From: an uncultured Eubacteriales bacterium
GTDB taxonomy: Bacteria; Bacillota; Clostridia; Lachnospirales; Lachnospiraceae
Assembly: GCA_900314885.1 (NCBI GenBank)
Contig: OMWY01000019.1
Location: 7,297 to 39,296, forward strand
Length of the DNA: 32,000 bases
Reading direction: 5' to 3'
Positions 9,504-29,822 of the stretch are shown piece by piece. The notes below the pieces were generated by a model. It had not been told where the DNA came from and made no database searches. It worked only from the letters and a program-made list of their open reading frames with translations. How positions within the stretch are numbered: position 1 is the stretch's first letter; every line of letters begins with the position of its first letter. Both the position numbers and the translations under genes were made by a program.

Positions 9504-10199
9504 ATGGACAAGAAAAACAAGATGGCTGGCTATGCCGCTAAAATCCGGGAACTTGAGAAGGGTGTCAGTACTAATCCTGAAACTCGCGATGAGAAGCTTC
9601 GCTGTAAGGAATGCCTTGAAAGGGAGCAGAAATATTTTATAGAAATAGGAAGACTTTACAGGGCTTTGATTCCTCATATTTACGCGAAGGATAAGAGGGT
9701 TCGTTATGGAGTTGAACCAGTAAATCAGGTTGAAATTCTTAACGGAAAATACAGTGACGATGGAGCTCTTGACACCATTAAGAAAATTATTCCGATTATT
9801 AAGAGTGATACCTTCAGAAGGTCATCGGCCATTACGAGCATTTATTTTTCCTGTGAAATGACTGACGATTTTTCGGGATGTGTTAACACTGTGTCTGTCG
9901 ATGGCGATAATATCGAGCCATCCGCGACAAACCAGGCATGGGGCCGCTATCGGGCGAGATATGACCTTAAGAAAAATAATGTGACCGGTGTCTTTGATTC
10001 GAAGGATACCTTCGAGGATCCTATCCCTGCGGAAATTATTGAGATAGTAAACGCGAGCGAAGAGGAAAATGATGAGCTGACAAGCAATATCAAGGCTCTC
10101 CTTAACGCGAAAAACCGTGGTGTCGATCTCATAAATAAGAACGGCAGAGGAAATGATACCATGACAAGGACTGATTTAATAAAAAATCTGTCCAAATAA
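9504..10199 (+). CDS. Hypothetical cytoplasmic protein
   Basis: 231-aa ORF preceded by AAGGAG. I recognise no family. Confidence 0.55.
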   Translation: MDKKNKMAGYAAKIRELEKGVSTNPETRDEKLRCKECLEREQKYFIEIGRLYRALIPHIYAKDKRVRYGVEPVNQVEILNGKYSDDGALDTIKKIIPIIKSDTFRRSSAITSIYFSCEMTDDFSGCVNTVSVDGDNIEPSATNQAWGRYRARYDLKKNNVTGVFDSKDTFEDPIPAEIIEIVNASEEENDELTSNIKALLNAKNRGVDLINKNGRGNDTMTRTDLIKNLSK

Positions 10200-13176: not shown

Positions 13177-13213
13177 TAAGTAGATTGTAGAAGTCAATTA
13201 TGGGAGAGTGCTT

Positions 13214-16171
13214 ATGACTAATCTTAATTCAGTTGATTATAGTAAACAGGACAACAACGTAAGCGAACTTACTAAGGCAGAAAGCCCTGCCCTTAGAAGT
13301 TTAAAGGATGGTCCTGTTGATGATATACCCCAGGTGAAGAAGTTTGAAACGGTGATAGAGAGACCGATAGAGCTTACAAGGGCTAAGCTTCCTTCATCTG
13401 TAATTGAGAATACCAAGGAGCAGGAACGGGCTTCAAGGGAACTAAAAGAGGAAGCAGAGAATGAGGCATCTGCCTTCAAGGATATCGCAGGGAAGCTTAA
13501 CTCCGATAATCTGAAGGCACTTATGGATGATGGACTTAATGCCGGCGATTCAAAAGCGGACATTATTAAGAAGAGCGTTGATAATTTTAAGGAGCATCGT
13601 GAGAAAAAAAGGGAGTACACCGCGGCGGAGGCGGAACATTTAAAAGAAAGCGCCGAAAATGCTCGCTCTATGGGACTTAACGACGAAGAGCGAGAGATAG
13701 CGGAGAAGCTTGAGCAGTCAGGATTAGCGGTAACAAAGGAAAATATCGAAAAAGTTCAGGGCGCTTTGGAGCTTGCGGGAAACGCAGTTAAGAATCTCAC
13801 TGACAGCGGCAAGAGGTACCTGGTTTCAGAAAATAAGACTCAGTCGATAATAAATATTTACATGGCAGGGCATATTGCAGGCGATGCTTCTTCGATTGAG
13901 AGAAGCGCAGACGGAGACCTGTACACGGAATCTGCCGAGAATGAAAAGGCCTGGCAGGAGGTGCTGCCGCAGGCCCGCAACATTTTAGCGAACGAAGGTG
14001 TGCCGGTAGATGACGAGACACTTGGCGTTTCCAAATGGCTCTTCTTTAACGACATCCCTATAAATGCCGAAAATATCGCTGAAGCTCTCTCTCTTAATAA
14101 CCTTAAGGATGGCGTACCTAAGGATGAAACAGAAGTTAAAATCGTCGATACGATCGCTCTGGGCGAGAAGAGCTATGATGCGATTATCGGTGATGTTGAC
14201 GAGCGTAAGGCTTCTTATGTTGTAAATTATCTTTCGAATGTGAATGCCGACAGCATTAAGGACATTACGGCGAGACGGAAGCTAGAGGAGGCAAGGCTTG
14301 CCCTGACTTATGAATCAGCCCTCGGTATGATTAGGAAGGGGATAGATATTGATCTTAGCAATCTCGAAGGACTGGTTGAAAGTCTTAAGAAAACTGAAAG
14401 TGACTACTACGCAGGTCTCATCGAGAATGCCACTTACGATTCAGAGCTTTCGCGGGAAAATGAGGGCGAGAGCCCCGAAAAGGTACTTGAGAGACCTAAG
14501 CTTAGCCTTAGTGATCAGGTTGCCCTTATGTCGAAGGTTCTCACGGTCAGGAATTATGCTGTAAATATGCCACTTGACAGCGACTACATGACAGGCGCTG
14601 TGGGTGAGAGCGAAAAGAGCAACAATACGATAAACCTTGAGAGGTTCCATGAGGCGGGCCTTGCCTACGAGGCGAGCGGAACCGAGGTTAGAAGGAATCT
14701 CGGCGACAGCATGAGAAAGGCCTTCAGAAATGTTGATGAAATTATTTCTAAAAATGGCCTTACGCCTACTGAAGCGAACAGGACGGCAGTAAAGATGCTT
14801 GCCATGAATAACGCTGATATTACAAGAGCTTCCATCATTTCCATGAGGAGGTCTACTATAATCGCTACAACCGCTCTTAAGGGGCTTAAGCCGGCTACAG
14901 TAGCGGGATTGATAAAGAACGGCAGGAATCCTCTCGATATGTCAATGGAGGAGCTCTTTGAGACCGTGAAGGAGATAAATAATTCAGCGCCACAGTCTGA
15001 TGAAAGCTATGCGGCCTATTTATATAAGATTGAAAACAGGGGCGATATCACTGATGAGGAGCGTCAGGCTTATATAGGAATTTACAGGCTCTTAAATAAG
15101 CTGGAGCAAAATGATGGCGGCGATATAGGCTCGGTTGTCCTTGCGGGACGCGAGCTCACACTCAGAAATATGCTTTCAGCCGTAAGAAGCAGACGGCAGG
15201 CGGGCTTCGATGTCACGGTTGACGAGGACCTGGGCGAGCTTGCTGATTTTACGGAAGCTTCAAACAGGATCGACAGACAGATTGATGGCGCCTTTATTTC
15301 CGACATAGCGGCGAAGCTAAAGGATGAGCTATCTGAAGCGTCAGAGGACTACCTTAAGGATCAGAGCGCAGAGCTTGCTCGCTTCATGAGTGAAAACTCT
15401 GACAGTATGCAGGGTCTCATCACGGAAGGGGCGAAGCTGACGGCCTATAATCTTGCTGCCGAAAGCGACATCAGAAGGGGCAGGAAGTCAATTAATGCCA
15501 TAACCGAAAATCTGTCTGAGGATGATCTTGATGAGCTTGGTGGGAGCTCTGAGAAGTCCGTAGCGGAGATGGATGATCCGGAGAAATTAACTACTGACGT
15601 AGAGGCAATCAATGGAAAATTATCAGATAAGGCCGATGACCTTGCGGCTGCTGACAATATCACCTTTGATCGCTTCGCTGCCCTCCTTGCGGCAAAGAGA
15701 ACGCTTGCCTTATCAAGCGTAAGGATTCGAAGCGGGAAGTTCGATATCCCTGTATTTGTAAATAACAGGCTCGCGAACCTCTCTGTGTCGATAAATGAAG
15801 GAAGCAGCGGTTCAGAGAGGGGAAGCATAGACATTGCAATAGATGGTGACATAAATGGCTCATTTACTGTGAACGGTGATACGGTGAGTGGATTCATGGC
15901 TTCGGAGAATGAAAATATGTTGCAGGCCATGAGCGGAGCTCTGGATATGCTCACTGAAAATATTGAAAATTCGGGATTTCAGGCCGGAGAAATTTCATTT
16001 CACAATGTGAAGACGGTTCAGAATTCCGGAAACAATGTCGATAATAAGGATAGTAATGTTAAAACAAGGAAGCTGTACCGGGCGGCGAAGGTTATCGCCA
16101 CCTTTATGCTAGGGAGAGTAAGGGGTATGGCCGAAAATGGAACGGATTCCATGAGTACAGTTAAGGAGTGA
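13214..16171 (+). CDS. Large acidic, probably helical protein of unknown function with a FliK-like C-terminal region
   Basis: 985-aa ORF from ATG 13214 (GTG 13208 is also possible) after GGGAGAG. It ends 4 nt before the flagellin gene. Residues encoded at about 15740-16009 (FDIPVFVNN...IDIAIDGDINGSFTVNGDTVSGFMASENENMLQAMSGALDMLTENIENSGFQAGEISF) resemble the FliK C-terminal (Flg_hook) pattern. Confidence 0.7.
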   Translation: MTNLNSVDYSKQDNNVSELTKAESPALRSLKDGPVDDIPQVKKFETVIERPIELTRAKLPSSVIENTKEQERASRELKEEAENEASAFKDIAGKLNSDNLKALMDDGLNAGDSKADIIKKSVDNFKEHREKKREYTAAEAEHLKESAENARSMGLNDEEREIAEKLEQSGLAVTKENIEKVQGALELAGNAVKNLTDSGKRYLVSENKTQSIINIYMAGHIAGDASSIERSADGDLYTESAENEKAWQEVLPQARNILANEGVPVDDETLGVSKWLFFNDIPINAENIAEALSLNNLKDGVPKDETEVKIVDTIALGEKSYDAIIGDVDERKASYVVNYLSNVNADSIKDITARRKLEEARLALTYESALGMIRKGIDIDLSNLEGLVESLKKTESDYYAGLIENATYDSELSRENEGESPEKVLERPKLSLSDQVALMSKVLTVRNYAVNMPLDSDYMTGAVGESEKSNNTINLERFHEAGLAYEASGTEVRRNLGDSMRKAFRNVDEIISKNGLTPTEANRTAVKMLAMNNADITRASIISMRRSTIIATTALKGLKPATVAGLIKNGRNPLDMSMEELFETVKEINNSAPQSDESYAAYLYKIENRGDITDEERQAYIGIYRLLNKLEQNDGGDIGSVVLAGRELTLRNMLSAVRSRRQAGFDVTVDEDLGELADFTEASNRIDRQIDGAFISDIAAKLKDELSEASEDYLKDQSAELARFMSENSDSMQGLITEGAKLTAYNLAAESDIRRGRKSINAITENLSEDDLDELGGSSEKSVAEMDDPEKLTTDVEAINGKLSDKADDLAAADNITFDRFAALLAAKRTLALSSVRIRSGKFDIPVFVNNRLANLSVSINEGSSGSERGSIDIAIDGDINGSFTVNGDTVSGFMASENENMLQAMSGALDMLTENIENSGFQAGEISFHNVKTVQNSGNNVDNKDSNVKTRKLYRAAKVIATFMLGRVRGMAENGTDSMSTVKE

Positions 16172-16175
16172 GACT

Positions 16176-17603
16176 ATGAGAATTAACCATAATATGTCAG
16201 CGATTCGCGCTAACATGCATCTTTCCATTTCGAGCGACAGACTCTCTAAGAGCAGCGAGAAGCTTGCCAGCGGCTATAAGATTAATCACGCATTTGATGA
16301 CCCTGCGGGGCTCGCCATTTCCAATAAAATGCGTCTTCAGATAAAGTCACTTAAGAAGGCGACTGAGAATACCGGAAACGGAATCTCGGTTATGCAGATA
16401 GCTGATGGGGCGCTTGAGGAAGTGACCTCCATGATTCAGCGTATGAATGAGCTCTCTGTAAAGGCCGCGAACGGTACAAATTCAAATAACGACAGACAGA
16501 ATATCCAGGATGAAGTGAGCCAGCTGATGTCTGAGATAGACAGAATCGCTGAGACGACCGATTACAATACCATGAAGATTCTTAACGGTGATCTCGACAG
16601 GAGATGCATAACGAACACCGATGGTATAACCATGCAGAATGTCGGCATGGGAGTTGAGGATGGGAAATACCAGATAAAGATAGCAAGTGGAACTGACTTG
16701 AACTATCTGGATAAGAGTAATGTTAGCCTTGTGGATACTGATGCTACAGTCTCAAAATTCACTGATGTGACTCCTAAGCCTGTGATTACGGTAGAAGGCA
16801 CGAATACGAACTTCAAGGAAGAATCTACAACTTCGGAAACTGCGAATGATTCGGACACTTCAAGAACCTATGAGGCGACCGGTGACAGGAAGTTCGTAAA
16901 GGGCCGCATGCTTGATGATCCGAGAGTAGTTGTGACAGGAAAAGACGGATTCAGCATGGAATTCAGGCTGGATCTGGATGAGCTCTATAAGAAGAATAAA
17001 GATAACATTACATTTAAATATGAGTATTTTGATGGAACTGACACTTACACAAAGACAGTGGTGAATGGTGGAACGGCTACTTATACCGATAAGGCTGGGA
17101 ATGCTATTAACGATGCGGATATTAAAGCAAAGTTGGATGCCAGTGAACCAGCAAGCGCTAAGTATACCGGCGCCGACATCACCGTCACCGGTACTGTCCT
17201 TGACGCGGGCTACGCTACCCTCCAACTTGGCGCTAACACAGGCGAGGATATGGACGTCTATATCCCTAAGATTAGCACCGAGACCCTCGGTATAGAGGAT
17301 CTCGACGTCACAACCGAAAACGACGCTACAGAGGCAGTGAGGAAGGTCAGCACCGCCCTTGCGAACGTATCAAGCTTCAGAAGCAGACTCGGCGCCTATC
17401 AGAACCGCCTCGAGAGCACCTTAAGGAACAGCAACACAACCGTAGAGAATATGACCCAGTCACTCTCAAGGGTTATGGATACGGATATGGCTGAAGAGAT
17501 GACGGAATATACCCAGCTCCAGGTACTCGAGCAGGCAGGAACCAGCGTTCTTGCTGAGGCAAATCAGCGCCCTGAGACAATTCTTTCCATACTTCAGAGC
17601 TGA
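16176..17603 (+). CDS. fliC: Flagellin
   Basis: N-terminus MRINHNMSAIRANMHL...KLASGYKIN...DDPAGLAISNKM...NGISVMQIADGAL. C-terminus RSRLGAYQNRLESTLRN...LQVLEQAGTSVLAEANQRPETILSILQS. AAGGAG RBS. The central variable region is about 200 aa. Confidence 0.93.
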   Translation: MRINHNMSAIRANMHLSISSDRLSKSSEKLASGYKINHAFDDPAGLAISNKMRLQIKSLKKATENTGNGISVMQIADGALEEVTSMIQRMNELSVKAANGTNSNNDRQNIQDEVSQLMSEIDRIAETTDYNTMKILNGDLDRRCITNTDGITMQNVGMGVEDGKYQIKIASGTDLNYLDKSNVSLVDTDATVSKFTDVTPKPVITVEGTNTNFKEESTTSETANDSDTSRTYEATGDRKFVKGRMLDDPRVVVTGKDGFSMEFRLDLDELYKKNKDNITFKYEYFDGTDTYTKTVVNGGTATYTDKAGNAINDADIKAKLDASEPASAKYTGADITVTGTVLDAGYATLQLGANTGEDMDVYIPKISTETLGIEDLDVTTENDATEAVRKVSTALANVSSFRSRLGAYQNRLESTLRNSNTTVENMTQSLSRVMDTDMAEEMTEYTQLQVLEQAGTSVLAEANQRPETILSILQS

Positions 17604-17615
17604 TTGAGGTGAGAA

Positions 17616-18098
17616 ATGACCGCTGAAGAAATAAAAAATTTCAAAAATCGTATAACTTCCGCAAACAGGACTGGTCTAACCGTTATCATTTATGATATAA
17701 TAGACACTGACCTCACTGAAGCGGAAGAAAAGATTGCGATATCTGACAAGGAAGGAGCCAAGCATGCCCTTGCCCACGCAAGGAAATTCGTGACGGAGCT
17801 CCTTGTCACGCTCGATATGAAATACGAGCTCTCGTATAATCTCGCAAGTCTCTACATTTACGTAAATAAATGCATAAATTCTGCCTACGTGAGTCTTAAG
17901 GCAGAAAAAGTAACAGAAGCTGCGCGTATTATGAAGAGCCTCGGTGACGCATTCAGAAAGGTGGCCGAGACGGATGATAGCGCTCCCCTCATGGAGAATA
18001 CTGAGTCGGTATACGCGGGACTTACCTACGGAAAGGGAATGGAACCGGATGAGGCTGTGGTTGACGCGAATGAAGCGAACCGTGGCTTCCTGGTTTAG
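17616..18098 (+). CDS. fliS: FliS-like flagellin export chaperone with a C-terminal extension
   Basis: Sits immediately downstream of the flagellin. The pattern ITSANRTGLTVIIYDII...AHARKFVTELLVTLDMKYELSYNLASLYIYVNKCINSAY...LGDAFRKV follows the FliS four-helix template. Confidence 0.72.
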   Translation: MTAEEIKNFKNRITSANRTGLTVIIYDIIDTDLTEAEEKIAISDKEGAKHALAHARKFVTELLVTLDMKYELSYNLASLYIYVNKCINSAYVSLKAEKVTEAARIMKSLGDAFRKVAETDDSAPLMENTESVYAGLTYGKGMEPDEAVVDANEANRGFLV

Positions 18099-18105
18099 AA
18101 AAGGT

Positions 18106-19257
18106 ATGTTATTTTCATTTGATAAGAAGGCTTATGGCCTTATATTAAAAACTGCCGTGATTGTCGCGGCAGCTTTTTTTGCGGTACATTTACCTGAAGC
18201 CTATGCTTCTGAAAATGCGACAAGCGCGAGTCAGCCTGAAAACGCCTCCGGAAGCGCCGTGAAAAAGAAGAGCTTCAAGATAAAAGCATTTACGGCGGAG
18301 GGCGACCTCGTAGAGGTTGATACCGGCGTGACAAGGTCTGCCATAGAGGACTCTGTGCTTACGGCCTCGTGGAAACTGACGGGCTTCAAGGACGATGGGA
18401 AGACTGAGATATCGATTTATGCCGATACCGACAACAAGGGTTATGACGGTGATCTCATATACAGCGGTACGGGTGAAAAGAGTGGCAGCGCTATTTTGCT
18501 TGCCGGAGACCTTGCGACGGACGATTATTATTTTTATATAGAGGCCACAAGAAATGGCGTGACAAAGCGGAAATACACGGGAAAGTCCTTTCCTTTGGTA
18601 AATTATGAGGATATTTTGCCTGATTGCTCAGTTTCATTTAACAATGAAGAAGAGATAACAAATGATGACGTTCTTGCGGCTGATGTCTCCTTCGACGGAC
18701 ATTGCACGGTTACGGCCCTTGTAAATGACAATAAGGTCATAGACGCTTCAGGTGCGGTAGGGCGCTATAATATACCACTTTCAGAGGGTGAGAACAGCGT
18801 AGAGCTTATCGTTACCGGTGAAAATGGCAAGGGGAGGCATTTTACAGAGGATATAACTCTTGACACGGACCCGCCATACCTCCTTGTTTCGACTGATGTC
18901 GATGGGGCGGTTACGAGTGCTGAGACGGTTGATATTTCAGGAAATGTCGAGAAGGGCGCTCTTCTTACCGTAAATGATGAGACTATCCTGTATGACAGCG
19001 ATGGGAATTTCAGTACCACCGTAAAGCTTGACAATGGTAACAACATCGTTGACGTTAAGGCGGAGGATGAGGCCGGAAATATTAATAATTACCCGATGAC
19101 AGTCTACAGACGGCAGATCAGGCAGAACAAGAGAAACAAGAAGGCTGCGATATTTGTCGGGGGGTTGTTCGGCATTATTATTTTCGGGTACATTTTCTTC
19201 TTTATAAAGTGGATTAGAAAACATCGCCGTCTTGACAAAAAGAAGAATAGAAAGTAG
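18106..19257 (+). CDS. Secreted, C-terminally membrane-anchored protein with Ig-like repeats
   Basis: Signal peptide MLFSFDKKAYGLILKTAVIVAAAFFAVHLPEAYA|SE (an alternative ATG at 18070 would overlap fliS). Ig-like repeat pattern (SEGENSVELIVTGENG; GNNIVDVKAEDEAGN). C-terminal TM helix plus a basic tail, with no LPXTG. Confidence 0.68.
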   Translation: MLFSFDKKAYGLILKTAVIVAAAFFAVHLPEAYASENATSASQPENASGSAVKKKSFKIKAFTAEGDLVEVDTGVTRSAIEDSVLTASWKLTGFKDDGKTEISIYADTDNKGYDGDLIYSGTGEKSGSAILLAGDLATDDYYFYIEATRNGVTKRKYTGKSFPLVNYEDILPDCSVSFNNEEEITNDDVLAADVSFDGHCTVTALVNDNKVIDASGAVGRYNIPLSEGENSVELIVTGENGKGRHFTEDITLDTDPPYLLVSTDVDGAVTSAETVDISGNVEKGALLTVNDETILYDSDGNFSTTVKLDNGNNIVDVKAEDEAGNINNYPMTVYRRQIRQNKRNKKAAIFVGGLFGIIIFGYIFFFIKWIRKHRRLDKKKNRK

Positions 19258-22071: not shown

Positions 22072-22103
22072 AAAAAGAGCCGTGCATTGCACGGCTCTTT
22101 TTT
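22072..22103 (+). terminator. Rho-independent terminator after mtnN (copy 1 of a duplicated palindrome)
   Basis: AAAAA-GAGCCGTGCA-T-TGCACGGCTC-TTTTTT: a perfect 10-bp stem at 22077-22086 / 22088-22097 with flanking A and T runs. Confidence 0.8.
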
Positions 22104-22153
22104 GTTGCGAGAAAGATGGTTGGAGGAAATTAAAAAAAATTACAGATATCGGT

Positions 22154-22178
22154 TAAGTTTTTTTGGGGGGGTCGATAT
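22154..22178 (+). promoter_or_regulatory. Candidate sigma-28 (FliA/SigD)-type promoter for the flagellin-pilus operon
   Basis: GTCGATAT (22171-22178) matches 7 of 8 positions of GCCGATAT. TAAG (22154-22157) serves as the -35. The spacer is 13 nt against a consensus of about 15 and consists of T7G6. It lies 35 nt upstream of the ATG. Confidence 0.45.
22158..22171. repeat. Back-to-back homopolymers T7 then G7
   Basis: Read directly from the sequence: ...aagTTTTTTTGGGGGGGtcgatat... Confidence 0.95.
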
Positions 22179-22212
22179 AAATAGTGTAAATGTGATGGAA
22201 GGAGGATGAGTA

Positions 22213-24279
22213 ATGATTGCTATATCGTACAATGCCGCGGCAGCAAACGCTTCGAGGCATTTTAAAGTAAATACGAAAGACCAGTCGAAGAACTTAGAGA
22301 AGCTCTCCTCCGGTTACAGAATAAACAGGTCAGCGGATGACGCGACCGGTCTTTCGATCTCTGAGAAGATGCGTACCCTCATCAGGGGACTCAGTCAGGC
22401 TACAGATAACTGTCAGGACGGAATCTCTATGCTACAGGTAGCTGACGGATCACTTGCTGAAATGACCAGCATGATGCACCGCATGACTGAGCTTTCTGTA
22501 AAGTCAGCGAATGGCACCAACTCTCAAAAAGACCGACAGATACTACAGAATGAGATAAAGCAGCTTAAACTTGAGATAAACGGCCAGGTTGAGAAGACAA
22601 AGTTTAACGATATTAAGATCTTCGATCCATCGGGAATGAACGGTGTGGCTGATGCTTTTATTGGCACTGCCACCGGTACGCCTGCGGATGATTCCATAAC
22701 AAATTATTCGTTCGGAGCGGATGGAAACGGAATAAGTATAAATGGCACAACATTTCCATATGAGGATATAAAGAATTCAGCCGGTGAACCTATGAGCTCG
22801 CTGAAAGATGGAACTTACAAACTGAGGTACAACGGTGTAACATTTCCCTTAACCATTAAGAATGTGAGTGACAGGAGCCAATTGACGCAGCTGGTGGGAG
22901 CGTTTTCGGTTACGAGTGAAAAGAAGGAAGCCCTTCCAGCGAGAAAGGCAGTAGAATCAGCTTCATTTTCTTTTGATCCTGTTGCTGGCGCAGACATCAA
23001 AGATGGCACAAAATTTGTCATAAAGGCTGACAGCGATGGAATAAACGGGAGATTTAAATGGAAAGATCTCTGCCCGGCTTTAGCGGAAGGCAAGGATCTC
23101 GGGGCCAACCAGATTACAATATCTGTTCCTATACAGAAGGGTGTAAGCTTTGACATAAAAGTTAATAATGGCGCCAAGCTTGAGCAAGTGGTTGATTCAA
23201 TAAATAATTTTTCGGCAACGGTGAAAGCAGGGCAGATAAAAGGTATAGACGTTACAAGATTTTTCTCAGGCTATACAATTACAGGAGGCCAGTTGCCGGT
23301 TAATCTTACAAGTAATACCAGTAAGACCTTTGACTGGAGCCTTCCGGGAGATCCTGCAAATGATGATGCTTTAAAGGACATCGCAAAAAAGCTCAATTGT
23401 GACGTGACTGATCTGACAGGCGGTGACTTAAAAATATATTTTCAGAACAAGAATGGATATAATGTACCGACAGCCGTGCTGACCGCAAAAAGTTCAAAAG
23501 GAGGCCAGGGCTCGGTCACTTATACTATGTCTAAGGAAGATAGCGATAGCTTAAAAGCCCTGTTACAGCCGGGAAATGCTTTCCCTATAAAAAGTCATGT
23601 AGCTGATGCTAAGTTTAGTTATAAAGGAAGTTCGTTTGTAGGTCATCTTATCGCAATAAGAGATGTCACCGGAACGGAAATTCCCGGGCGTGGGCCCGGC
23701 ATATTGTTTAACAGCAATAATATTCCTTCGAAGGTGGAATTTAATATTAGTCATGAAAGTGTTCTTAACTCAAATGGTGAAGTGAAGTCAATGGAGGAAG
23801 GAAATATTCTTCCACCCCAGTATAAATACAACTTCGATACATTTGAAAGTGAATCTCTTTATGATCCTGACTATCCTAAGAACAAATGGTGGATTCAGTC
23901 AGGCGAGGGAACCATGAACGGTATGATGCTTTCCGTGGGGCAGGTTAGCTGTAATCTGCTGGGGCTCGACGACATGGATATTTCGACGGAAAACGGAGCT
24001 ACCCAGGGCATAAGACAGACGGGAAAGGCTCTTAAGACTCTTAGTAAGATTCGTTCCGAACTTGGAGCTGAGCAGAACCGCTTAGAGCATACAGTGTTAA
24101 ATAATAAGAACGCGGTAGAAAATACTACTGCTTCCGAATCTCTTATAAGAGATACCGATATGAGTACGGCTATGGTTTCGTTCCACAAGTTAAATATACT
24201 TGAAATGACAGGTGAGAGCATGTTGGCTCAGGCAAATAAAAATCCTGAGGATGTACTGAAGCTCTTGGAGACAAAGTAA
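22213..24279 (+). CDS. Flagellin-family protein with a very large (~400 aa) central insert
   Basis: GGAAGGAGGA RBS. N-terminal D0/D1 region: KLSSGYRINRSADDATGLSISEKMRTLIRGLSQATDNCQDGISMLQVADGSL...SVKSANGTNSQKDRQILQNEIKQL. C-terminal region: IRSELGAEQNRLEHTVLNNKN...IRDTDMSTAMVSFHKLNILEMTGESMLAQANKNPEDVLKLLE. Confidence 0.88.
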   Translation: MIAISYNAAAANASRHFKVNTKDQSKNLEKLSSGYRINRSADDATGLSISEKMRTLIRGLSQATDNCQDGISMLQVADGSLAEMTSMMHRMTELSVKSANGTNSQKDRQILQNEIKQLKLEINGQVEKTKFNDIKIFDPSGMNGVADAFIGTATGTPADDSITNYSFGADGNGISINGTTFPYEDIKNSAGEPMSSLKDGTYKLRYNGVTFPLTIKNVSDRSQLTQLVGAFSVTSEKKEALPARKAVESASFSFDPVAGADIKDGTKFVIKADSDGINGRFKWKDLCPALAEGKDLGANQITISVPIQKGVSFDIKVNNGAKLEQVVDSINNFSATVKAGQIKGIDVTRFFSGYTITGGQLPVNLTSNTSKTFDWSLPGDPANDDALKDIAKKLNCDVTDLTGGDLKIYFQNKNGYNVPTAVLTAKSSKGGQGSVTYTMSKEDSDSLKALLQPGNAFPIKSHVADAKFSYKGSSFVGHLIAIRDVTGTEIPGRGPGILFNSNNIPSKVEFNISHESVLNSNGEVKSMEEGNILPPQYKYNFDTFESESLYDPDYPKNKWWIQSGEGTMNGMMLSVGQVSCNLLGLDDMDISTENGATQGIRQTGKALKTLSKIRSELGAEQNRLEHTVLNNKNAVENTTASESLIRDTDMSTAMVSFHKLNILEMTGESMLAQANKNPEDVLKLLETK

Positions 24280-24289
24280 CGGGGGATAA

Positions 24290-24508
24290 ATGACAGCTAC
24301 TAATATCAAGGATGTCAGCGACCACATAAAGAAAATGAAATTCCGTCGAAAGGTTTTTGGCGGAGTTGATGAGCGAGATGTGTGGCGGCAGATAAAACTG
24401 CTCGATGATGATTACAGGAACCTGTACAGGATCCTCTGTGAAGAATATCAGAAAAACATAGAACTTATGAAGCAGAGGAGTAATGGGGAAGTCAAAACAA
24501 GACAGTAA
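24290..24508 (+). CDS. Small DivIVA-domain protein
   Basis: 72-aa ORF 10 nt after the flagellin stop (GGGGGAT RBS). KFRRKVFGGVDERDVWRQIKLLDDDYRNL follows the DivIVA/GpsB N-terminal pattern F-x4-(R)GY-x3-(E)VD-x-FL-x6-DY-x2-L. Confidence 0.55.
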   Translation: MTATNIKDVSDHIKKMKFRRKVFGGVDERDVWRQIKLLDDDYRNLYRILCEEYQKNIELMKQRSNGEVKTRQ

Positions 24509-25070
24509 AAGCACACGTAAGCCAAGTATATGGGAATGGTGGCCGACTGAGAAAGCCATAGAAGCAAGATATGAGAGAGCGGTCTGGCATGAAGAAATAA
24601 TCTCATTTTTGATGAGATTATTTGCTCTGATAGCTCTGCTTGTGATTCTGTTCCTCATGGTATTTGGTATATTTACCGAAGATGACATGGAAATGTCGCC
24701 TGCGGTGAGAGCCGGTGATCTTGCTATATATCAAAGGGGAATTAAGGAGTTCAGGCTCGAAGATGTGCTCATATATGAGGCTGATGGGAAAGAAAGAATC
24801 GGCAGGGTGGTAGCGAGGCCAACCGACACGGTTGAAATTACCTCGGAAGGCGCCGTAAAGGTTAATGGCTACGTCCAGATTGAGGAGAGAATAACCAATG
24901 GTACTTCTATCGAGCCAGGCGTAAGCTATCCGCTTACACTTAAGGCCGATGAGTATTTTATACTGGCAGATGCGCGCGGAGATGCGAAGGACAGCAGGCT
25001 TTTTGGCCCCGTTAGTAGGGACCATATACTAGGAAGAGTTGCATTTCTTTTACGCATGGATGATTTCTAA
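24483..25070 (+). CDS. Signal peptidase I (S26) homologue with a substituted catalytic dyad; SipA/LepA-like pilus assembly factor candidate
   Basis: AGAGGAG RBS. One TM helix (LFALIALLVILFLMVFGIF). S26 boxes are recognisable: DMEMSPAVRAGD (box B/C), ERIGRVVARPTDTV (box D) and YFILADARGDAKDSRLFGPV...ILGRV (box E). Ungapped alignment puts Glu at the nucleophile Ser position and Gly at the general-base Lys position. Confidence 0.78.
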   Translation: MGKSKQDSKSTRKPSIWEWWPTEKAIEARYERAVWHEEIISFLMRLFALIALLVILFLMVFGIFTEDDMEMSPAVRAGDLAIYQRGIKEFRLEDVLIYEADGKERIGRVVARPTDTVEITSEGAVKVNGYVQIEERITNGTSIEPGVSYPLTLKADEYFILADARGDAKDSRLFGPVSRDHILGRVAFLLRMDDF

Positions 25071-25093
25071 AATATGGAACATGGAGGTGCAGA

Positions 25094-26467
25094 ATGAAGA
25101 AAATCATTCGGAAAGTTATAGTTACCATGGTTATGGCATCTACTATGGTAACTATGCTGTGGACAAGTCCACCGGGTAGAAACGCAGAGGCTGCGAGTGA
25201 TGGATTAAGCTTTGATCAGCAGATAAAAGCCAATGATGTAACCGACGGTAGTCATATAAGCGGAATTACGACGCCGGATTTTAAAGTAGAATACAGGCTT
25301 GATCCCATACTTAACGTTAGTTCAAATGATAAGAGGTATGAAACCGACCTTGCGAATTATCCGGATGGGAGTGTTAAGGATGCTACAGGTGTAATAAATT
25401 ATACCAAGGAAATTACTTCGAAGATCACGGATGCATCAGGTATCGCAAGTGCGGAAATTTCCGCTAATGATATATTTAACGGTAAAAAATTTGCGGAAAA
25501 CAGCAAGGTTTATCGTTATAACGTGAGCATTGTTGGTCTATATGTAAAGGAGAATGATACTACCTGGAGCAGTAGTAACCTGCTTAATTCTCCTGACAGT
25601 GGAATAGTTGTTCCGCATATTACGCCGATTATGGATGTTTCGATAGACAGCGATGGTAAGATAGCTCAGATTGCTATGTGGGATTCTTCAGGAACATCTA
25701 AGACGAGTGGTTTTGTAGCAAGGAACAGTTCCGGGAACGGTAATCCTTTTATTGCTACTGTGTACGCCGATGATGGTTCCGGAGCTATAGAATACAACAC
25801 CAACGATGTAGTAATTACGTCTGATTATATCGGCGGAAATTGGGACAGTATTCATGGCGGTATATCATATTCTGTGACCTTTACCAACCTGCCTTATTAT
25901 CTTGTATCAAGCGATGCTGTATTTGAAAGTCTGATTGTTGGCACGAACGCAAGAAGCTGGAAGGCTGAGAGCGGGAATACAACAGCTAAGGCCGTGGCTC
26001 TAGGTACACTTGATCAAACTGATGAGATTACTTTTCATGGTATTCCGGCTGTCGATGGAGCGGGAAATAAGGTGACTTATTCATCAACCATTCATTTTGA
26101 AAATCTTGATAAGGATGAGTCCTTGAAGAAGCAATATGCTTCAGCCATCTTTTATGGGGCTGTCGCCGACCGTATTTCCTCTGTAAGCTCACTTGCCGAA
26201 TTCGCTTCCTCCGGACAGTCGGTTGGATATGATAATAATGCGTATAAGCAGGGAGAAGATTATCGTACCATAGGCGCTTCTGAAGTTTCTGCAACAAGCG
26301 TAAACGCAAACAGGTTCGTCATTTTTGATCCTGATCAGCTTGTAGTAGTCGGTGTAGTAAAAAATTCTGCTCCTGCCGTATTTATGATAATAGCAGGGAT
26401 ACTGATTCTCATGCTTCTCTTAATAGGAAGGAGACACGAGGATAATTACCATTTTAAAAGGAGGTAA
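25094..26467 (+). CDS. Pilin-like sortase-substrate candidate 1 (non-LPXTG C-terminal sorting signal)
   Basis: Signal peptide ending AEA|AS. C-terminus has the conserved block RFVIFDPDQLVVVGVVKNSAPAVF, then a hydrophobic helix MIIAGILILMLLLIG, then the basic tail RRHEDNYHFKRR. It is a paralogue of the next gene. Confidence 0.68.
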   Translation: MKKIIRKVIVTMVMASTMVTMLWTSPPGRNAEAASDGLSFDQQIKANDVTDGSHISGITTPDFKVEYRLDPILNVSSNDKRYETDLANYPDGSVKDATGVINYTKEITSKITDASGIASAEISANDIFNGKKFAENSKVYRYNVSIVGLYVKENDTTWSSSNLLNSPDSGIVVPHITPIMDVSIDSDGKIAQIAMWDSSGTSKTSGFVARNSSGNGNPFIATVYADDGSGAIEYNTNDVVITSDYIGGNWDSIHGGISYSVTFTNLPYYLVSSDAVFESLIVGTNARSWKAESGNTTAKAVALGTLDQTDEITFHGIPAVDGAGNKVTYSSTIHFENLDKDESLKKQYASAIFYGAVADRISSVSSLAEFASSGQSVGYDNNAYKQGEDYRTIGASEVSATSVNANRFVIFDPDQLVVVGVVKNSAPAVFMIIAGILILMLLLIGRRHEDNYHFKRR

Positions 26468-26473
26468 ATAAAA

Positions 26474-27829
26474 ATGGGAAAGAAATGGACTAAAGTAATG
26501 ATAAGCGTGGCTTCTGCCGGTATGCTTGCCATAAGTATGCTTACGGCGATGCCAGCAAGACAGGTGAAGGCGGCAAGCACAACAAGCTTTAAGCAGGAGA
26601 TTATTGTAAATGATGTAACTGATGGAAATCATACCGCTAAGGTAAAGATGCCAAAGATTACAGTTACGTACCGCCTGACACCTGTTGTAGATAGCGCAGG
26701 CCTGCCTGCTAATGACTCTCGTTACGCGGATAAATTGGATTTATTTATTAACGGCAGCGTAAAGGATTCGACCAAAGTTGTTGAAACATCTGTAGTTATT
26801 GAAGATAATGTAGCATCAGATGATGAGGGCCATTATGTAAAAGACATAACCCCTGATGATATTGGCTTAACCGGATTTGTAAATGCCAGCAGGGTATACA
26901 GATATAAGATAGAGATTTCGGGTGTTTATCGTGGTGACGATACGAAGGATGACGCACATAATCTGTTAAAATTATCTCAGGATGATTTTACTTTCCCTGA
27001 GAATCAGTTAGGAATTCTGGATGTTTCTGTGGATACAGATAAAAAGGTGGCAGCTATCGCCTTCTGGAATTCGACAGGGACCAACAAACTTGATGGATTT
27101 ACCGGTGCTGAAGGTGATGGAGCGGATGCCTTTAAATATAACGTAGCGGATCTCCAGATATCATCGGATTATATAGGTAAGAACTGGGACAGCTTACATG
27201 GCGGTTTCGTCTATACCGTTAAAATTGATAAGCTTCCGAACGATACCTTTAAGCAAGCTAAAGATGTGAAAGATTGCTTATATGATGATGGACGTAGTTG
27301 GGACGTAAGTGCCTCAAATGGCTGGACACCGGGAACGAGTACAAGTACAATAATTCTTGAAGGTACGTTGGATCAGAATTCGCAAATACTGATTGGGGGG
27401 CTTCCTAAAGGCGTTACATACTTAGGCACTATTGATTTTACTAAACTTGAAAAAGCTGTGGTAGGTAATACGACGGAAGATTTGAGAGCGAAATATGGTC
27501 CTGCCATATTCTATGGAGCGAAGGTAAAGCGAGTAGAAGGGATTAATGATATGACTTCTTTTGCCGGAAGCGAATATGCCGGAAAGTATGAGTATAAGGC
27601 CTATGAAACGGGAAAGGATACAAGAGCGCTTGATAATGCAAGCGAGGTAGTACTTGAAAATAATGGTGATTCCAATTCAAGCCGTTTTATTATCTTCGAC
27701 CCATCCGATCTCGTAGTTGTTGGTGTCGTAAGAAATACATTACCGGCTGTAGGGCTTATATGTATCGCCGGAGCTATTGCGATAGCGCTCTTCTTCACAA
27801 GAAAGAAAAAGCTGCCTGTAATTGAGTGA
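26474..27829 (+). CDS. Pilin-like sortase-substrate candidate 2 (LPAVG-type C-terminal sorting signal)
   Basis: Signal peptide ending VKA|AS. C-terminus RFIIFDPSDLVVVGVVRNTLPAVG, then LICIAGAIAIALFF, then TRKKK. It shares blocks with the upstream paralogue (NDVTDG.H, VYRY, DVS.D.D.K.A.IA.W.S.GT, SDYIG.NWDS.HGG, AIFYGA). Confidence 0.68.
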   Translation: MGKKWTKVMISVASAGMLAISMLTAMPARQVKAASTTSFKQEIIVNDVTDGNHTAKVKMPKITVTYRLTPVVDSAGLPANDSRYADKLDLFINGSVKDSTKVVETSVVIEDNVASDDEGHYVKDITPDDIGLTGFVNASRVYRYKIEISGVYRGDDTKDDAHNLLKLSQDDFTFPENQLGILDVSVDTDKKVAAIAFWNSTGTNKLDGFTGAEGDGADAFKYNVADLQISSDYIGKNWDSLHGGFVYTVKIDKLPNDTFKQAKDVKDCLYDDGRSWDVSASNGWTPGTSTSTIILEGTLDQNSQILIGGLPKGVTYLGTIDFTKLEKAVVGNTTEDLRAKYGPAIFYGAKVKRVEGINDMTSFAGSEYAGKYEYKAYETGKDTRALDNASEVVLENNGDSNSSRFIIFDPSDLVVVGVVRNTLPAVGLICIAGAIAIALFFTRKKKLPVIE

Positions 27830-27846
27830 TTATTTTAAGAACTTTT

Positions 27847-27876
27847 ACCGGGATCACGGACTGTCGCGATCCCGGT
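27847..27876 (+). promoter_or_regulatory. Stem-loop between pilin gene 2 and the sortase gene (partial terminator or mRNA-stability element candidate)
   Basis: ACCGGGATC (27847-27855) / GATCCCGGT (27868-27876) with a 12-nt loop, followed by the interrupted T-rich stretch TATGTTATTTAT. Confidence 0.4.
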
Positions 27877-27912
27877 TATGTTATTTATAAGACAGATAAG
27901 GAGATGATGACC

Positions 27913-28677
27913 ATGAGGTTTTTAGCAGGATTATCAAGGACCGGAGATAAATTTATAAGGATAATTCTTGAGATAATAATGGTCATTTTCTTCTTGCTTG
28001 GCGGATATATTTTGTGGCATACGTGGATGGTTTATCATTCAGCTTTTGACCTGTCGGGAGTGGAGCAGTATAAGCCTGAATTAGCGGAAGAGGGTATGAG
28101 CCTCGAAGAAATCAGAAAAATAAATCCAGATGTGATAGGGTGGATATCCATAGATGGCACGCATATAGATTACCCTCTGCTTCAAGGACGCGATAACCAG
28201 GAATATTTAAATAAGGATATTAATGGTGATTTTGCCCTCCATGGATCAATATATCTCGATTCATTAAATAACCGAGACTTTTCTGACAGTTATAATATTA
28301 TTTATGGTCACCATATGGATAATGGTGGCATGTTTGGTGATATTGTAAAATTTAAGGATGAAAAATATTTTGAGAGTCACGAAAGCGGAAACCTGTGGCT
28401 TAAGAATAAGACATATAAACTTGAAATATGCGCAATAATGATGGAAGATGCTTATGACAGGGAGTTTACAGGCCCAAAAGGAAAGGATTCCGATATAACG
28501 GATTTTATGAAAACAGTATATAGCAGGGCGATTTATTCGAGACCTGTCGAGGTAAGTTCAGCTGATCGCTTAGCAGGACTCCTAACCTGCGACTCAGCAT
28601 TTACAAATGGGAGAAATATCCTAGTATGTAAGCTGGTACCGGAAAAAGATGATGATACTGTGCATATATTAAAATAG
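27913..28677 (+). CDS. srtB: Class B sortase
   Basis: ATG at 27913 lies 9 nt after AAGGAG; in-frame ATGs at 27904 and 27907 are also possible, and the listed ORF starts at 27826. There is an N-terminal TM helix. Motifs: INPDVIGWISIDGTHIDYPLLQGRDNQEYLNKD, IIYGHHM (catalytic His), LLTCDS (catalytic Cys) and GRNILV (Arg). The layout closely parallels S. aureus SrtB as I recall it. Confidence 0.88.
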   Translation: MRFLAGLSRTGDKFIRIILEIIMVIFFLLGGYILWHTWMVYHSAFDLSGVEQYKPELAEEGMSLEEIRKINPDVIGWISIDGTHIDYPLLQGRDNQEYLNKDINGDFALHGSIYLDSLNNRDFSDSYNIIYGHHMDNGGMFGDIVKFKDEKYFESHESGNLWLKNKTYKLEICAIMMEDAYDREFTGPKGKDSDITDFMKTVYSRAIYSRPVEVSSADRLAGLLTCDSAFTNGRNILVCKLVPEKDDDTVHILK

Positions 28678-28728
28678 GCATCCAGCAAATAAACAGAGCT
28701 AATATTGGACTAGAGCTTATAAGGGATT

Positions 28729-28759
28729 AAAAGAGCCGTGCAATGCACGGCTCTTTTTT
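28729..28759. terminator. Bidirectional rho-independent terminator between srtB and murG (copy 2 of the duplicated palindrome)
   Basis: AAAA-GAGCCGTGCA-A-TGCACGGCTC-TTTTTT, with the stem at 28733-28742 / 28744-28753. The T-run touches the murG stop codon. Confidence 0.8.
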
Positions 28760-29822
28760 ATTTAGCTGCTTTCTCAATTAGTTCTGTAATAATCTTTATG
28801 GAGTCTGACTGACTGCTTTCTTTCATGTTCCTGATATAGGTGTCGCGGTTGAGGTAGACCTCGGCAACTGCCTTTGTGAGGGTCTCGTTCGTTACATTTT
28901 CCTCAGGAAGCATCTTCGCGAAGCCCTGCTTTTCGAAGCTCTTTGCGTTAAGTATCTGGTCGCCTCGGCTCGCGTCAGCGGCGAGAGGGATGAGAACCGA
29001 CGGAATTTTAAGGGCAGCAAACTCACAAATCGCGTTAGCCCCAGCGCGGGAAACTACGAGATCGGTTATCGCGAAAATGTCCCGCATTTCCTTATCCACG
29101 TACTCAAACTGTCTGTAGCCGATAGTGCCGTTATAGCTCTCGTCAGTTTTTCCTCGACCGCAGAGGTGGACGACGTCAAAGGTTTTAAGAAGCTCAGGAA
29201 GCGCCTTCCTCACTGCCTCATTTACCCTTACGGCGCCAAGACTTCCGCCCATAACAAGGAGTATAGGTTTATCGCCTGACATTCCGGTAAAGCTAAGTCC
29301 TTTCTCGCGACTTCCCATGAAGAGTTCACGCCTTATAGGAGTGCCGGTAAGAACTGCCTTCCCCTGCGGAAGAGAAGCTAGTGCCTCCGGGAAATTCGCG
29401 CACACGTAATCAGCCTTAGGTATGCAGAGCTTGTTCGCAAGGCCCGGCGACATATCGGATTCATGAATTATTGAAGGAATATGTAACTTGCTTGCGGCAA
29501 AAACTACAGGCACTGAGACGAAGCCGCCCTTAGAAAATACCACGTCAGGCTTGATTTTCTTAAGCGCTTCGACCGCTTCGTTGTAGCCCTTGATGACACG
29601 AAAGGGGTCTGAGAAGTTTTTCCAGGAAAAATACCTTCTTAATTTTCCTGAGGAAATGCCCGTATAGGGAATACCAAGTTCCTCTATGAGACCCTTCTCC
29701 ATGCCCTCGTATGAGCCTATATAGTAGACCTCATAGCCTGCCTTCTGAAGTTCAGGTATAAGGGCTATGTTAGGTGTAACATGGCCGGCTGTTCCACCGC
29801 CTGTGAGAACTATTTTTTTCAT
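28758..29822 (-). CDS. murG: UDP-N-acetylglucosamine--N-acetylmuramyl-(pentapeptide) pyrophosphoryl-undecaprenol N-acetylglucosamine transferase
   Basis: ATG at 29822 follows GGAGGG; the listed ORF extends 8 codons further upstream. Motifs MKKIVLTGGGTAGHVTPNIAL and VMGGSLGA are present. Confidence 0.93.
   Translation of the reverse strand: MKKIVLTGGGTAGHVTPNIALIPELQKAGYEVYYIGSYEGMEKGLIEELGIPYTGISSGKLRRYFSWKNFSDPFRVIKGYNEAVEALKKIKPDVVFSKGGFVSVPVVFAASKLHIPSIIHESDMSPGLANKLCIPKADYVCANFPEALASLPQGKAVLTGTPIRRELFMGSREKGLSFTGMSGDKPILLVMGGSLGAVRVNEAVRKALPELLKTFDVVHLCGRGKTDESYNGTIGYRQFEYVDKEMRDIFAITDLVVSRAGANAICEFAALKIPSVLIPLAADASRGDQILNAKSFEKQGFAKMLPEENVTNETLTKAVAEVYLNRDTYIRNMKESSQSDSIKIITELIEKAAK

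Follow-up and report, generated by a model that had tools for sequence, protein, structure and literature searches.

A six-gene module in a 32,000-nucleotide (nt) stretch of DNA from an uncultured member of the Lachnospiraceae (contig OMWY01000019.1; the whole stretch is referred to here as the window) places a flagellin gene directly ahead of genes resembling those of a sortase-dependent pilus. The six open reading frames (ORFs), tightly packed on the + strand at 22213–28677, encode in order a flagellin, a protein of 72 amino acids (aa), a signal-peptidase-I homologue of the SipA/LepA type, two pilin-like paralogues (pilins A and B) and a class B sortase. We consider it probable, at about 0.6, that a single sigma-28-type transcript yields both a specialised flagellin and the proteins of a remodelled FctA-type fibre, whose subunits the sortase would join from LVVV/G onto lysine K203 with the assistance of the SipA homologue and the small protein.

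A preliminary description of this DNA had listed the same six ORFs, and our ORF check of the window reproduced both their coordinates and the junctions of +10 nt (flagellin/72-aa gene), −26 nt (72-aa gene/sipA), +23 nt (sipA/pilin A) and +6 nt (pilin A/pilin B) exactly. Its last junction of +75 nt was slightly off, as the ATG at 27913, which is backed by a ribosome-binding site (RBS), gives +83 nt after pilin B, and an alternative GTG start at 27826 (283 aa) gives a 4-nt overlap. Both forms of the sortase occur in public gene calls, the 254-aa form on three independent contigs. The G+C content across the module is ∼41–44%, and the module sits between mtnN (upstream) and the convergent murG (downstream). 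None of the six proteins carries a public name in any source examined.

The flagellin and its linkage to the pilus genes

The 688-aa protein was matched by Pfam Flagellin_N (2.5e-36, 125 bits) and Flagellin_C (2.1e-20, 73 bits), both above their cut-offs, and was also recognised by NCBIfam, which bears out its earlier identification as a flagellin. It is the second flagellin of the window. A canonical 475-aa flagellin, paired with FliS at 16176–18098 and overlooked in the preliminary description, lies 4.6 kb upstream of the module, and the two flagellins align at both helical regions. The ∼430-aa central domain of the module flagellin is absent from the canonical one and gave no PDB sequence match below E 0.1; it is homologous between lineages (E 4e-75 and 1e-28), and the orthology of the protein to the module-heading flagellins of other lineages extends over its full length. 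It is a candidate for late (sigma-28) expression and for incorporation into the filament. Kinship of the central domain with the pilins, or with the middle ORFs described below, was rejected in the absence of any BLAST similarity. A YPKN pilin motif within DPDYPKNKWW, near the C-terminal helices, was likewise rejected because its lysine is not kept between loci (IPKR in L001/L005, YPRQ in L009/L010).

The pilin family to which the window belongs is small. A word search of 5.8 billion proteins found 6 clusters, an exhaustive hidden Markov model (HMM) search of 1.84 billion proteins found 20 representatives, and a profile search of a large protein database with pilin alignment A2 returned at least 7 proteins. 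All relatives come from uncultured rumen or gut metagenomes or metagenome-assembled genomes (MAGs). Linkage could be assessed in five lineages, namely the window, lineage B (which includes the rumen Lachnospiraceae MAG RUG151), L020, L012 and L021; four further contigs were uninformative, three because they break off within the gene that precedes the small gene and the fourth because it is too short. A flagellin heads the module in all five, in at least three distinct chromosomal contexts, and the linkage noted for the window is hence not a one-off. Lineage B has the six genes in the same order, adjoining efp and not mtnN/murG. L020 has flagellin, a 324-aa ORF, a 71-aa ORF, SipA, pilin and SrtB among unrelated neighbours, and both L012 and L021 show a flagellin C-terminus followed by a middle ORF, the small gene, SipA, pilin and SrtB.

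Pilin identity to the window falls from 47% in lineage B to 35% in L020, 26% in L012 and 27% in L021. Flagellin identities of 46, 38 and 29% accompany pilin identities of 47, 35 and 26%, a pattern of co-divergence. The gap between the flagellin and the next gene is 10 nt in the window, 0 in L020 and 5 nt in L012, with 52 and 133 nt also found.

In members with a single pilin, a secreted and extremely Asp/Glu-rich protein lies between the flagellin and the small gene. These acidic proteins, which occupy the position of a tip adhesin, gave no Pfam match. Those of L012, L019, L021 and L022 have a common ∼150-aa C-terminal domain (NVLCV…), and that of L020 is weakly related to the N-terminal part of the L021 protein. 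All five have a hydrophobic C-terminal stretch, with basic residues close to the end or at it, and two contain PPLTG or PVNTG.

The SipA homologue, its small partner and the sortase

The signal-peptidase-like (S26) protein gave a Pfam signal-peptidase match of 1.2e-17. Its best PDB matches were SipA of Streptococcus pyogenes (4n31, 4.8e-20) and LepA (4k8w, 1.3e-18), with the genuine signal peptidase SpsB reaching just 7e-5, some fifteen orders of magnitude worse than SipA. The catalytic dyad is replaced in every lineage, as judged from the SpsB/SipA alignment: the window has E70 and G107, and its orthologues have Ala or Asp at the serine position and Gly at the lysine position. The substituted dyad of the preliminary description is therefore confirmed. 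S. pyogenes SipA carries Asp48 and Gly85 at these positions (PMC4049620), and is specifically required for pilus polymerisation in streptococci (PMC4049620, PMC7900414).

The 72-aa protein has no signal peptide and no transmembrane helix, and its gene overlaps sipA by about 23–26 nt in both the window and lineage B. It is the best conserved product of the module, sharing 59% identity with lineage B and 47% with L012, and its family comprises 95 clusters, one of which has a JGI source name beginning ‘cell division septal prot’. The DivIVA domain previously assigned to it is unproven, as there was no Pfam or NCBIfam match at E ≤0.1 and no PDB sequence match at E ≤10; a weak hhalign match to the N-termini of DivIVA, GpsB and Wag31 fell in the expected register, with P 8e-4 and a probability of 25%. 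Across the whole family the protein is a conserved partner of SipA. The SipA homologue has an N-terminus of ∼40 cytoplasmic residues. The small protein may act as its cytoplasmic cofactor, and as such would be a new candidate, present in many loci labelled human-gut metagenome.

Assignment of the last gene to the class B sortases is well founded. It exceeded the cut-off of the class B equivalog TIGR03064 (186.2 against 153.75 bits, 5.5e-55) and retains the catalytic His (YGHHM), Cys (LLTCD) and Arg (NGRN). YGHHM, L[LV]TC and GR are kept in six lineages, and no lineage of the flagellin-linked sub-clade has lost the catalytic motifs. The best PDB match was 4y4q (2.7e-47), deposited as ‘Sortase, SrtB family’ and presumably SrtG1 of PI-2. 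Next came Spy0129 (3psq, 1e-38), the closest characterised match, ahead of the anchoring SrtB enzymes. Spy0129 is the class-B pilin polymerase of S. pyogenes (PMC3019223).

Pilin fold, sorting signal and acceptor lysine

Pilins A and B are 38% identical, and each has a signal peptide, a C-terminal transmembrane helix and a basic tail, in agreement with their earlier description as pilin-like paralogues. Neither gave a direct match in Pfam, NCBIfam or PDB sequences. An AlphaFold (AF2) model was built on an alignment of 16 diverse family members, with a mean predicted local distance difference test score (pLDDT) of 77.7 and a predicted template-modelling score (pTM) of 0.72. In a Foldseek search with this model each of the 19 best matches (E 7e-11 to 4e-8) was to Spy0128, a T-antigen or PitB. 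Other Gram-positive pilins ranked below them, and a shallower first model gave the same outcome. Inserts and domain orientation kept the target-normalised TM-scores modest, at 0.50 or less. In parallel, hhalign aligned the window's family with Pfam-FctA-positive pilins over 333 columns (98.7%, E 3.6e-16). Both the structure and the profile comparisons thus support a pilin-like nature for the two proteins, and the profile comparison shows the family to be a divergent branch of the FctA pilins.

No xVPTG-type motif, named in the preliminary description for the streptococcal pilins, was found in either pilin; LVVVG stands in the same register. The V-G pair is invariant in 16 of 16 family members, giving a candidate signal with neither Pro nor Thr. 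In the column map V419-G420 and P427 align with an invariant T-G and with a Pro seven residues later in the relatives, and in the AF2 model VVVGVVKNSAPA falls in the disordered segment that links the last strand to the transmembrane helix. Furthermore, the co-resident acidic middle ORFs of L012 and L022 carry PPLTG or PVNTG at the very place of VVG in the pilin. The T-G register, the disordered linker and the motifs of the middle ORFs together lead us to take LVVVG for the sorting motif, and we predict that it is cleaved between V419 and G420.

K203 (K205 in pilin B) is the only invariant lysine in the 16 diverse members. It lies in a loop before an F-x-x strand. In the alignment this loop corresponds to the omega-loop region that precedes the F-T-N strand in the relatives, a variable region that mostly bears a Lys. 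We take this to be about where K161 of Spy0128 lies relative to N168. K161 is the acceptor lysine of Spy0128 (PMC7900414), and K203/K205 is accordingly a candidate acceptor for the intermolecular linkage.

Two sets of Lys, Glu and Asn in the relatives are, by alignment, the counterparts of the Spy0128 isopeptide triads. In the column map the first, K57/E140/N189, becomes Q42/I146/A209 in the sub-clade, and the second, K206/E276/N306, becomes S243/(L,I)333/I410, so that both intramolecular cross-links are gone. In none of the sub-clade loci is the sortase followed by a basal pilin. A tip protein is missing as well from the window and lineage B, where the pilin is duplicated instead.

A wider family of pilus loci without flagellin

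A metagenome scan with a profile of the small protein gave 80 loci, 3 from the sub-clade and 77 others (L026–L102). In 68 of the 77 the small gene is followed directly by SipA, the contig ending first in the remaining 9, and a class B sortase lies one gene further in 42, contigs being cut in the rest. None of the 77 has a flagellin, and 54 of them have more than 2.5 kb of upstream sequence. That homologues of the pilus module are never linked to a flagellin therefore holds for the wider family (0/77) but not for the sub-clade (5/5). As 77 homologous modules never occur with a flagellin, we regard the flagellin as an acquisition of the sub-clade that is not intrinsic to this type of pilus.

The gene order of the wider family is tip protein, small FGGVDExDVW protein, SipA, pilin, SrtB and basal FctA protein. 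The tip protein is large, with VWA, SpaA and DUF7601 domains and an …xPTGL… motif; the pilin combines Pfam FctA and DUF7601 with …[AT]PTG[IV]-x5-P…; and the basal protein after the sortase is short, with an FctA domain and KTGD. The S. pyogenes FCT-2 locus has the order tip, sipA, backbone, sortase, base, to which the wider family adds the small gene; its product is a constant component that the streptococcal systems lack. The pilus components of FCT-2 are those given in PMC7900414. Set beside this family, the earlier label ‘undescribed surface-filament system’ was an overstatement, as the pilus family is FctA-type and recognised by Pfam, and the window encodes a derived variant of it.

Many of the family loci come from contigs labelled human-gut metagenome, and the family is apparently uncharacterised. 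On L093/L100 (706–7842) two blocks, each consisting of a 711-aa tip protein, the small protein and SipA, are inverted around a spacer of ∼0.9 kb that carries inverted copies of a 61-aa ORF; this could be an invertible or duplicated segment of the pilus locus, perhaps subject to phase variation.

Transcription signals and a bracketing repeat

The sigma-28-like promoter candidate reported upstream of the flagellin is present, and the block TTAAxT..GGGGGGGTCGATAy is kept upstream of the orthologous flagellins in lineage B. The region upstream of the L020 flagellin contains ACCGATAA with a CCGATAA element. By inspection and folding, the 10-nt gap between the flagellin stop (24279) and the 72-aa gene of the window holds an RBS only, with no hairpin and no terminator, as had been stated. 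Sigma-70-like internal promoters were uninformative (24 found against 17.8 ± 4.3 expected).

The strong terminator announced for the far end of the module was found, with a 13-bp stem at 28729–28757, and is common with the convergent murG. The preliminary description did not mention that the same hairpin, AAAAGAGCCGTGCAWTGCACGGCTCTTTTTT, also lies upstream. The module is bracketed by a 34-nt direct repeat of this terminator, the copies (22073–22106 and 28729–28762) being 94% identical; the repeat core occurs only at these two places within the 32 kb, with 0 expected by chance. The repeat looks like a duplication of the bidirectional mtnN/murG terminator that arose on insertion of the module. 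There is no integrase within the bracketed module and there are no flanking repeats around it in L020 or L009. A search for a mobile island with an empty site found none empty, all 23 contigs read with the exact MtnN of the window carrying the whole module.

Pilin B and the sortase are separated by 83 nt, and this spacer contains a G+C-rich hairpin followed by a partly U-rich tract. The 101-nt stretch 27815–27915 that includes it folds at −26.8 kcal/mol (z −2.6), and the terminator scan of the window did not flag the hairpin. It could be a partial terminator or attenuator that lowers the sortase transcript relative to that of the pilins.

Neighbouring genes and other features

A canonical flagellar gene group lies 3–9 kb upstream of the module (13208–19257). 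It encodes a 987-aa DUF6240 protein, the 475-aa flagellin starting 4 nt later, FliS and, after FliS, a membrane protein whose Ig domain is Glucodextranase-B/cadherin-like (383 aa in calls on other contigs).

In lineage B a 158-aa ORF after the sortase was considered as a component and rejected, since it consists of a 52-nt tandem and dispersed repeat that translates in several frames. The unit is arranged in tandem arrays and also turns up in several of the spacers near the sortase, that between pilin 2 and the sortase among them. A 257-aa ORF of lineage B gave no Pfam match and is absent from the window. In L020 a HEPN/nucleotidyltransferase toxin–antitoxin pair (9517–10066) lies directly downstream of the sortase and convergent with it, and a radical-SAM/SPASM gene and a helix-turn-helix regulator lie upstream of the flagellin.

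Table 1. Positions of the module's genes, sites and signals in the window, and of features on related contigs.
Feature	Position	Strand	Remarks
Terminator hairpin after mtnN	22073–22106	+	left repeat copy; −30.7 kcal/mol, z −6.7
Candidate sigma-28 (SigD)-type promoter	22154–22178	+	TAAG-N13-GTCGATAT; ∼35 nt upstream of flagellin ATG
Module flagellin, 688 aa	22213–24279	+	complete N- and C-terminal helical regions, ∼430-aa central domain
72-aa cytoplasmic-looking protein	24290–24508	+	core F-R-R-K-x-FGGVDERDVW; 26-nt overlap with sipA
SipA/LepA-type signal-peptidase-I homologue, 195 aa	24483–25070	+	one transmembrane helix; Ser to E70, Lys to G107
Pilin A, 457 aa	25094–26467	+	signal peptide, two beta-rich domains, transmembrane helix, basic tail
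Pilin A, codon of K203	25700–25702	+	candidate acceptor
Pilin A, LVVVG	26339–26353	+	predicted sorting motif
Pilin B, 451 aa	26474–27829	+	transmembrane helix, basic tail; 38% identical to A
Pilin B, codon of K205	27086–27088	+	candidate acceptor
Pilin B, LVVVG	27710–27724	+	predicted sorting motif
Hairpin in pilin B/sortase spacer	27847–27876	+	9 bp, G+C-rich; candidate attenuator
Class B sortase, 254 aa	27913–28677	+	N-terminal transmembrane helix; alternative GTG start 27826 (283 aa)
Sortase LLTCD	28579–28593	+	catalytic Cys
Terminator hairpin common with murG	28729–28762	+	right repeat copy; 13-bp stem at 28729–28757
Wider family, example locus L031	4112–10368
Wider family, example locus L038	2886–10734
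Wider family, example locus L084	4730–10648
Acidic protein, L012	1209–2138
Acidic protein, L020	5493–6467
Acidic protein, L021	591–2105
Acidic protein, L019	3–1652
Acidic protein, L022	3–737
52-nt repeat, L009	12658–13071, 14032–14185
52-nt repeat, L001	12616–13158, 13895–14372, 15260–15896

Interpretation and alternatives

We propose that an ancestor of several rumen Lachnospiraceae lineages placed a dedicated flagellin gene and a sigma-28-type promoter before an FctA-type pilus operon, and that the operon has since been inherited as one unit. When sigma-28 is active, a single transcript would provide the specialised flagellin, leaving by flagellar type III export, and the pilus proteins. The pilins would be exported by Sec and retained in the membrane by the C-terminal helix and basic tail. 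The class B sortase would then cleave LVVV/G, in the register of xPT/G in the homologous pilins, and join the new C-terminus to K203/K205 of the next subunit, with assistance from the SipA homologue, itself catalytically dead, and from the 72-aa protein. Relative to its relatives the fibre would be remodelled, with the triads and the basal pilin gone and no tip adhesin in the window. The net effect would be a motile cell that makes a variant flagellin and a sortase-built fibre simultaneously.

Several observations weigh against this proposal. We know of no precedent for a sortase that cuts a Val-Gly bond in a motif lacking both Pro and Thr, and pilins without triads, tip or base may not polymerise at all. 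The existence of 77 modules without a flagellin means that none is needed for this kind of pilus. The bare sigma-28 pattern is not rare (2 found against 1.2 expected by chance), and in lineage B the gap between flagellin and small gene is 52–133 nt and contains a palindrome, so that an RNA end or an internal promoter is possible there. Moreover, in Ligilactobacillus ruminis the regulator FpsR suppresses flagella and promotes pili, an example of reciprocal control (PMC12688256). Finally, all of these organisms are uncultured MAGs or metagenome contigs, and expression, cleavage and polymerisation were deduced from their sequences.

The alternatives that follow are partly compatible with co-expression of flagellin and fibre and with each other, so that our estimates for them need not sum to one. 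The flagellin may have inserted once upstream and simply been carried along, its product and the pilus proteins working independently with at most a common promoter. The larger homologous family, which never has a flagellin even in the 54 loci with more than 2.5 kb upstream, is in keeping with such neutral linkage, as is the confinement of flagellin-linked loci to one sub-clade with one divergent pilin family of 20 representatives, which fits a single founding event. Yet the linkage survived divergence to 26% pilin identity and moves to at least three distinct chromosomal contexts, and the flagellin was kept as other components turned over, with a reduced or absent tip, a duplicated pilin and no basal pilin left. 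The junctions also stay at 0–10 nt in three lineages, and the special central domain of the flagellin is itself conserved (E 4e-75, 1e-28). We judge a purely neutral association to be rather unlikely, while giving it some weight. Slightly more doubtful is that the pilin-like proteins are now monomers on motile cells, either tethered to the membrane or anchored to the wall by the class B sortase, as IsdC is by SrtB of Staphylococcus aureus. Replacement of both isopeptide triads (K/E/N by Q/I/A and by S/L/I), VVG in place of a canonical xPTG, and the lack of a basal pilin after the sortase and of a tip adhesin in the window are all as expected of monomers. Against this stand a sortase whose closest characterised PDB match is the Spy0129 pilin polymerase, above the anchoring SrtB enzymes, a single lysine that all 16 of the 16 diverse members keep where the acceptor is expected, and the retention and conservation of SipA, which streptococci need specifically for polymerisation (PMC4049620, PMC7900414).

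A physical coupling of the two structures, in which the large outer domain of the flagellin lets the fibre or its subunits bind or decorate the flagellar filament, or takes over from the missing tip adhesin, so that the two would make up a composite organelle of motility and adhesion, seems improbable to us. The flagellin holds the operon position that the tip adhesin has in the 77 relatives, loss of tip and base coincides with its gain, and its module-specific central domain of ∼430 aa is conserved. It has neither a signal peptide nor a sorting signal, however, and would leave the cell at the distal tip of the filament, far from the membrane-bound sortase; its YPKN is not conserved (YPRQ in L009/L010), and its centre has no sequence similarity to the pilins or middle ORFs. 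Equally speculative is a composite organelle in which the outer domain of the flagellin replaces the lost tip or base, for instance as an attachment or docking partner for a fibre of VVG-sorted pilins free of isopeptides, with the 72-aa protein and SipA coordinating assembly near the flagellar base. If true, it would be the first link between type III-exported and sortase-assembled filaments.

Sortase pili and flagella are usually seen as separate organelles, reciprocally controlled where tested. The co-expression that we favour suggests that some gut and rumen Firmicutes may deploy both together. The pilins, moreover, offer a natural experiment, with a predicted Spy0128-like fold that lacks the stabilising triads and bears a Val-Val-Gly signal, and they bear on what class B sortases and SipA recognise, a question left by the streptococcal literature (PMC7900414).

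Comparison with known systems

In the literature searched, of which coverage is incomplete, we found no flagellin gene tied to a sortase pilus operon and no FctA-type pili in Lachnospiraceae; the earlier statement that no flagellin-fused locus has been described stands to that extent. The component families are known, and the new elements are the flagellin head, the VVG signal, the lost isopeptide triads and the absence of a basal pilin.

That the last four genes follow the logic of the streptococcal FCT and PI-2 loci, as previously suggested, is supported by SipA and LepA as best PDB matches, by Spy0129 as second match of the sortase, and by Spy0128, the T-antigens and PitB in Foldseek. The window resembles FCT-2/3/4 of S. 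pyogenes (cpa-sipA/lepA-fctA-srtC1/2-fctB) and PI-2 of S. pneumoniae and S. oralis (pitA-sipA-pitB-srtG1-srtG2) in a signal-peptidase homologue that is inactive and carries the box B/D substitutions of SipA and in a class-B-type sortase adjoining the pilin genes (PMC4049620, PMC3019223, PMC7900414). By the AF2 model it also has the two-domain pilin fold of Spy0128 and PitB, with a signal peptide, C-terminal helix and basic tail. It differs in having LVVVG where those loci have (E/Q/V)VPTG, in lacking the Lys-Glu-Asn triads, the tip adhesin and an LPXTG basal pilin, and in adding the 72-aa protein before sipA and the flagellin with its sigma-28-type promoter at the head. Its host is a rumen clostridial anaerobe and not a streptococcus.

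With the broad clostridial family, the module has in common a homologous 72-aa protein, SipA, pilin and class B sortase in the same order, as well as the G-x6-P register. The broad family, in contrast, has a VWA/SpaA tip, xPTG or xDTG, intact triads, a KTGD basal pilin and no flagellin, whereas the sub-clade has a flagellin head and VVG and lacks both triads and base.

A signal-peptidase-family gene also lies inside the secreted-fibre operon tapA-sipW-tasA of Bacillus subtilis. SipW is an active ER-type peptidase that processes TasA, in a system with no sortase and no covalent polymer; the S26 protein of the window lacks the dyad and groups with SipA/LepA. L. ruminis offers a parallel as a Gram-positive gut commensal with flagella, sortase-dependent pili and genetic wiring between the two organelles (PMC12688256). 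Given its reciprocal control, joint wiring in the window would be unusual: L. ruminis keeps flagella and pili in separate loci and uses class C sortases, whereas the gene order in the window would imply their joint expression from a flagellar-type promoter.

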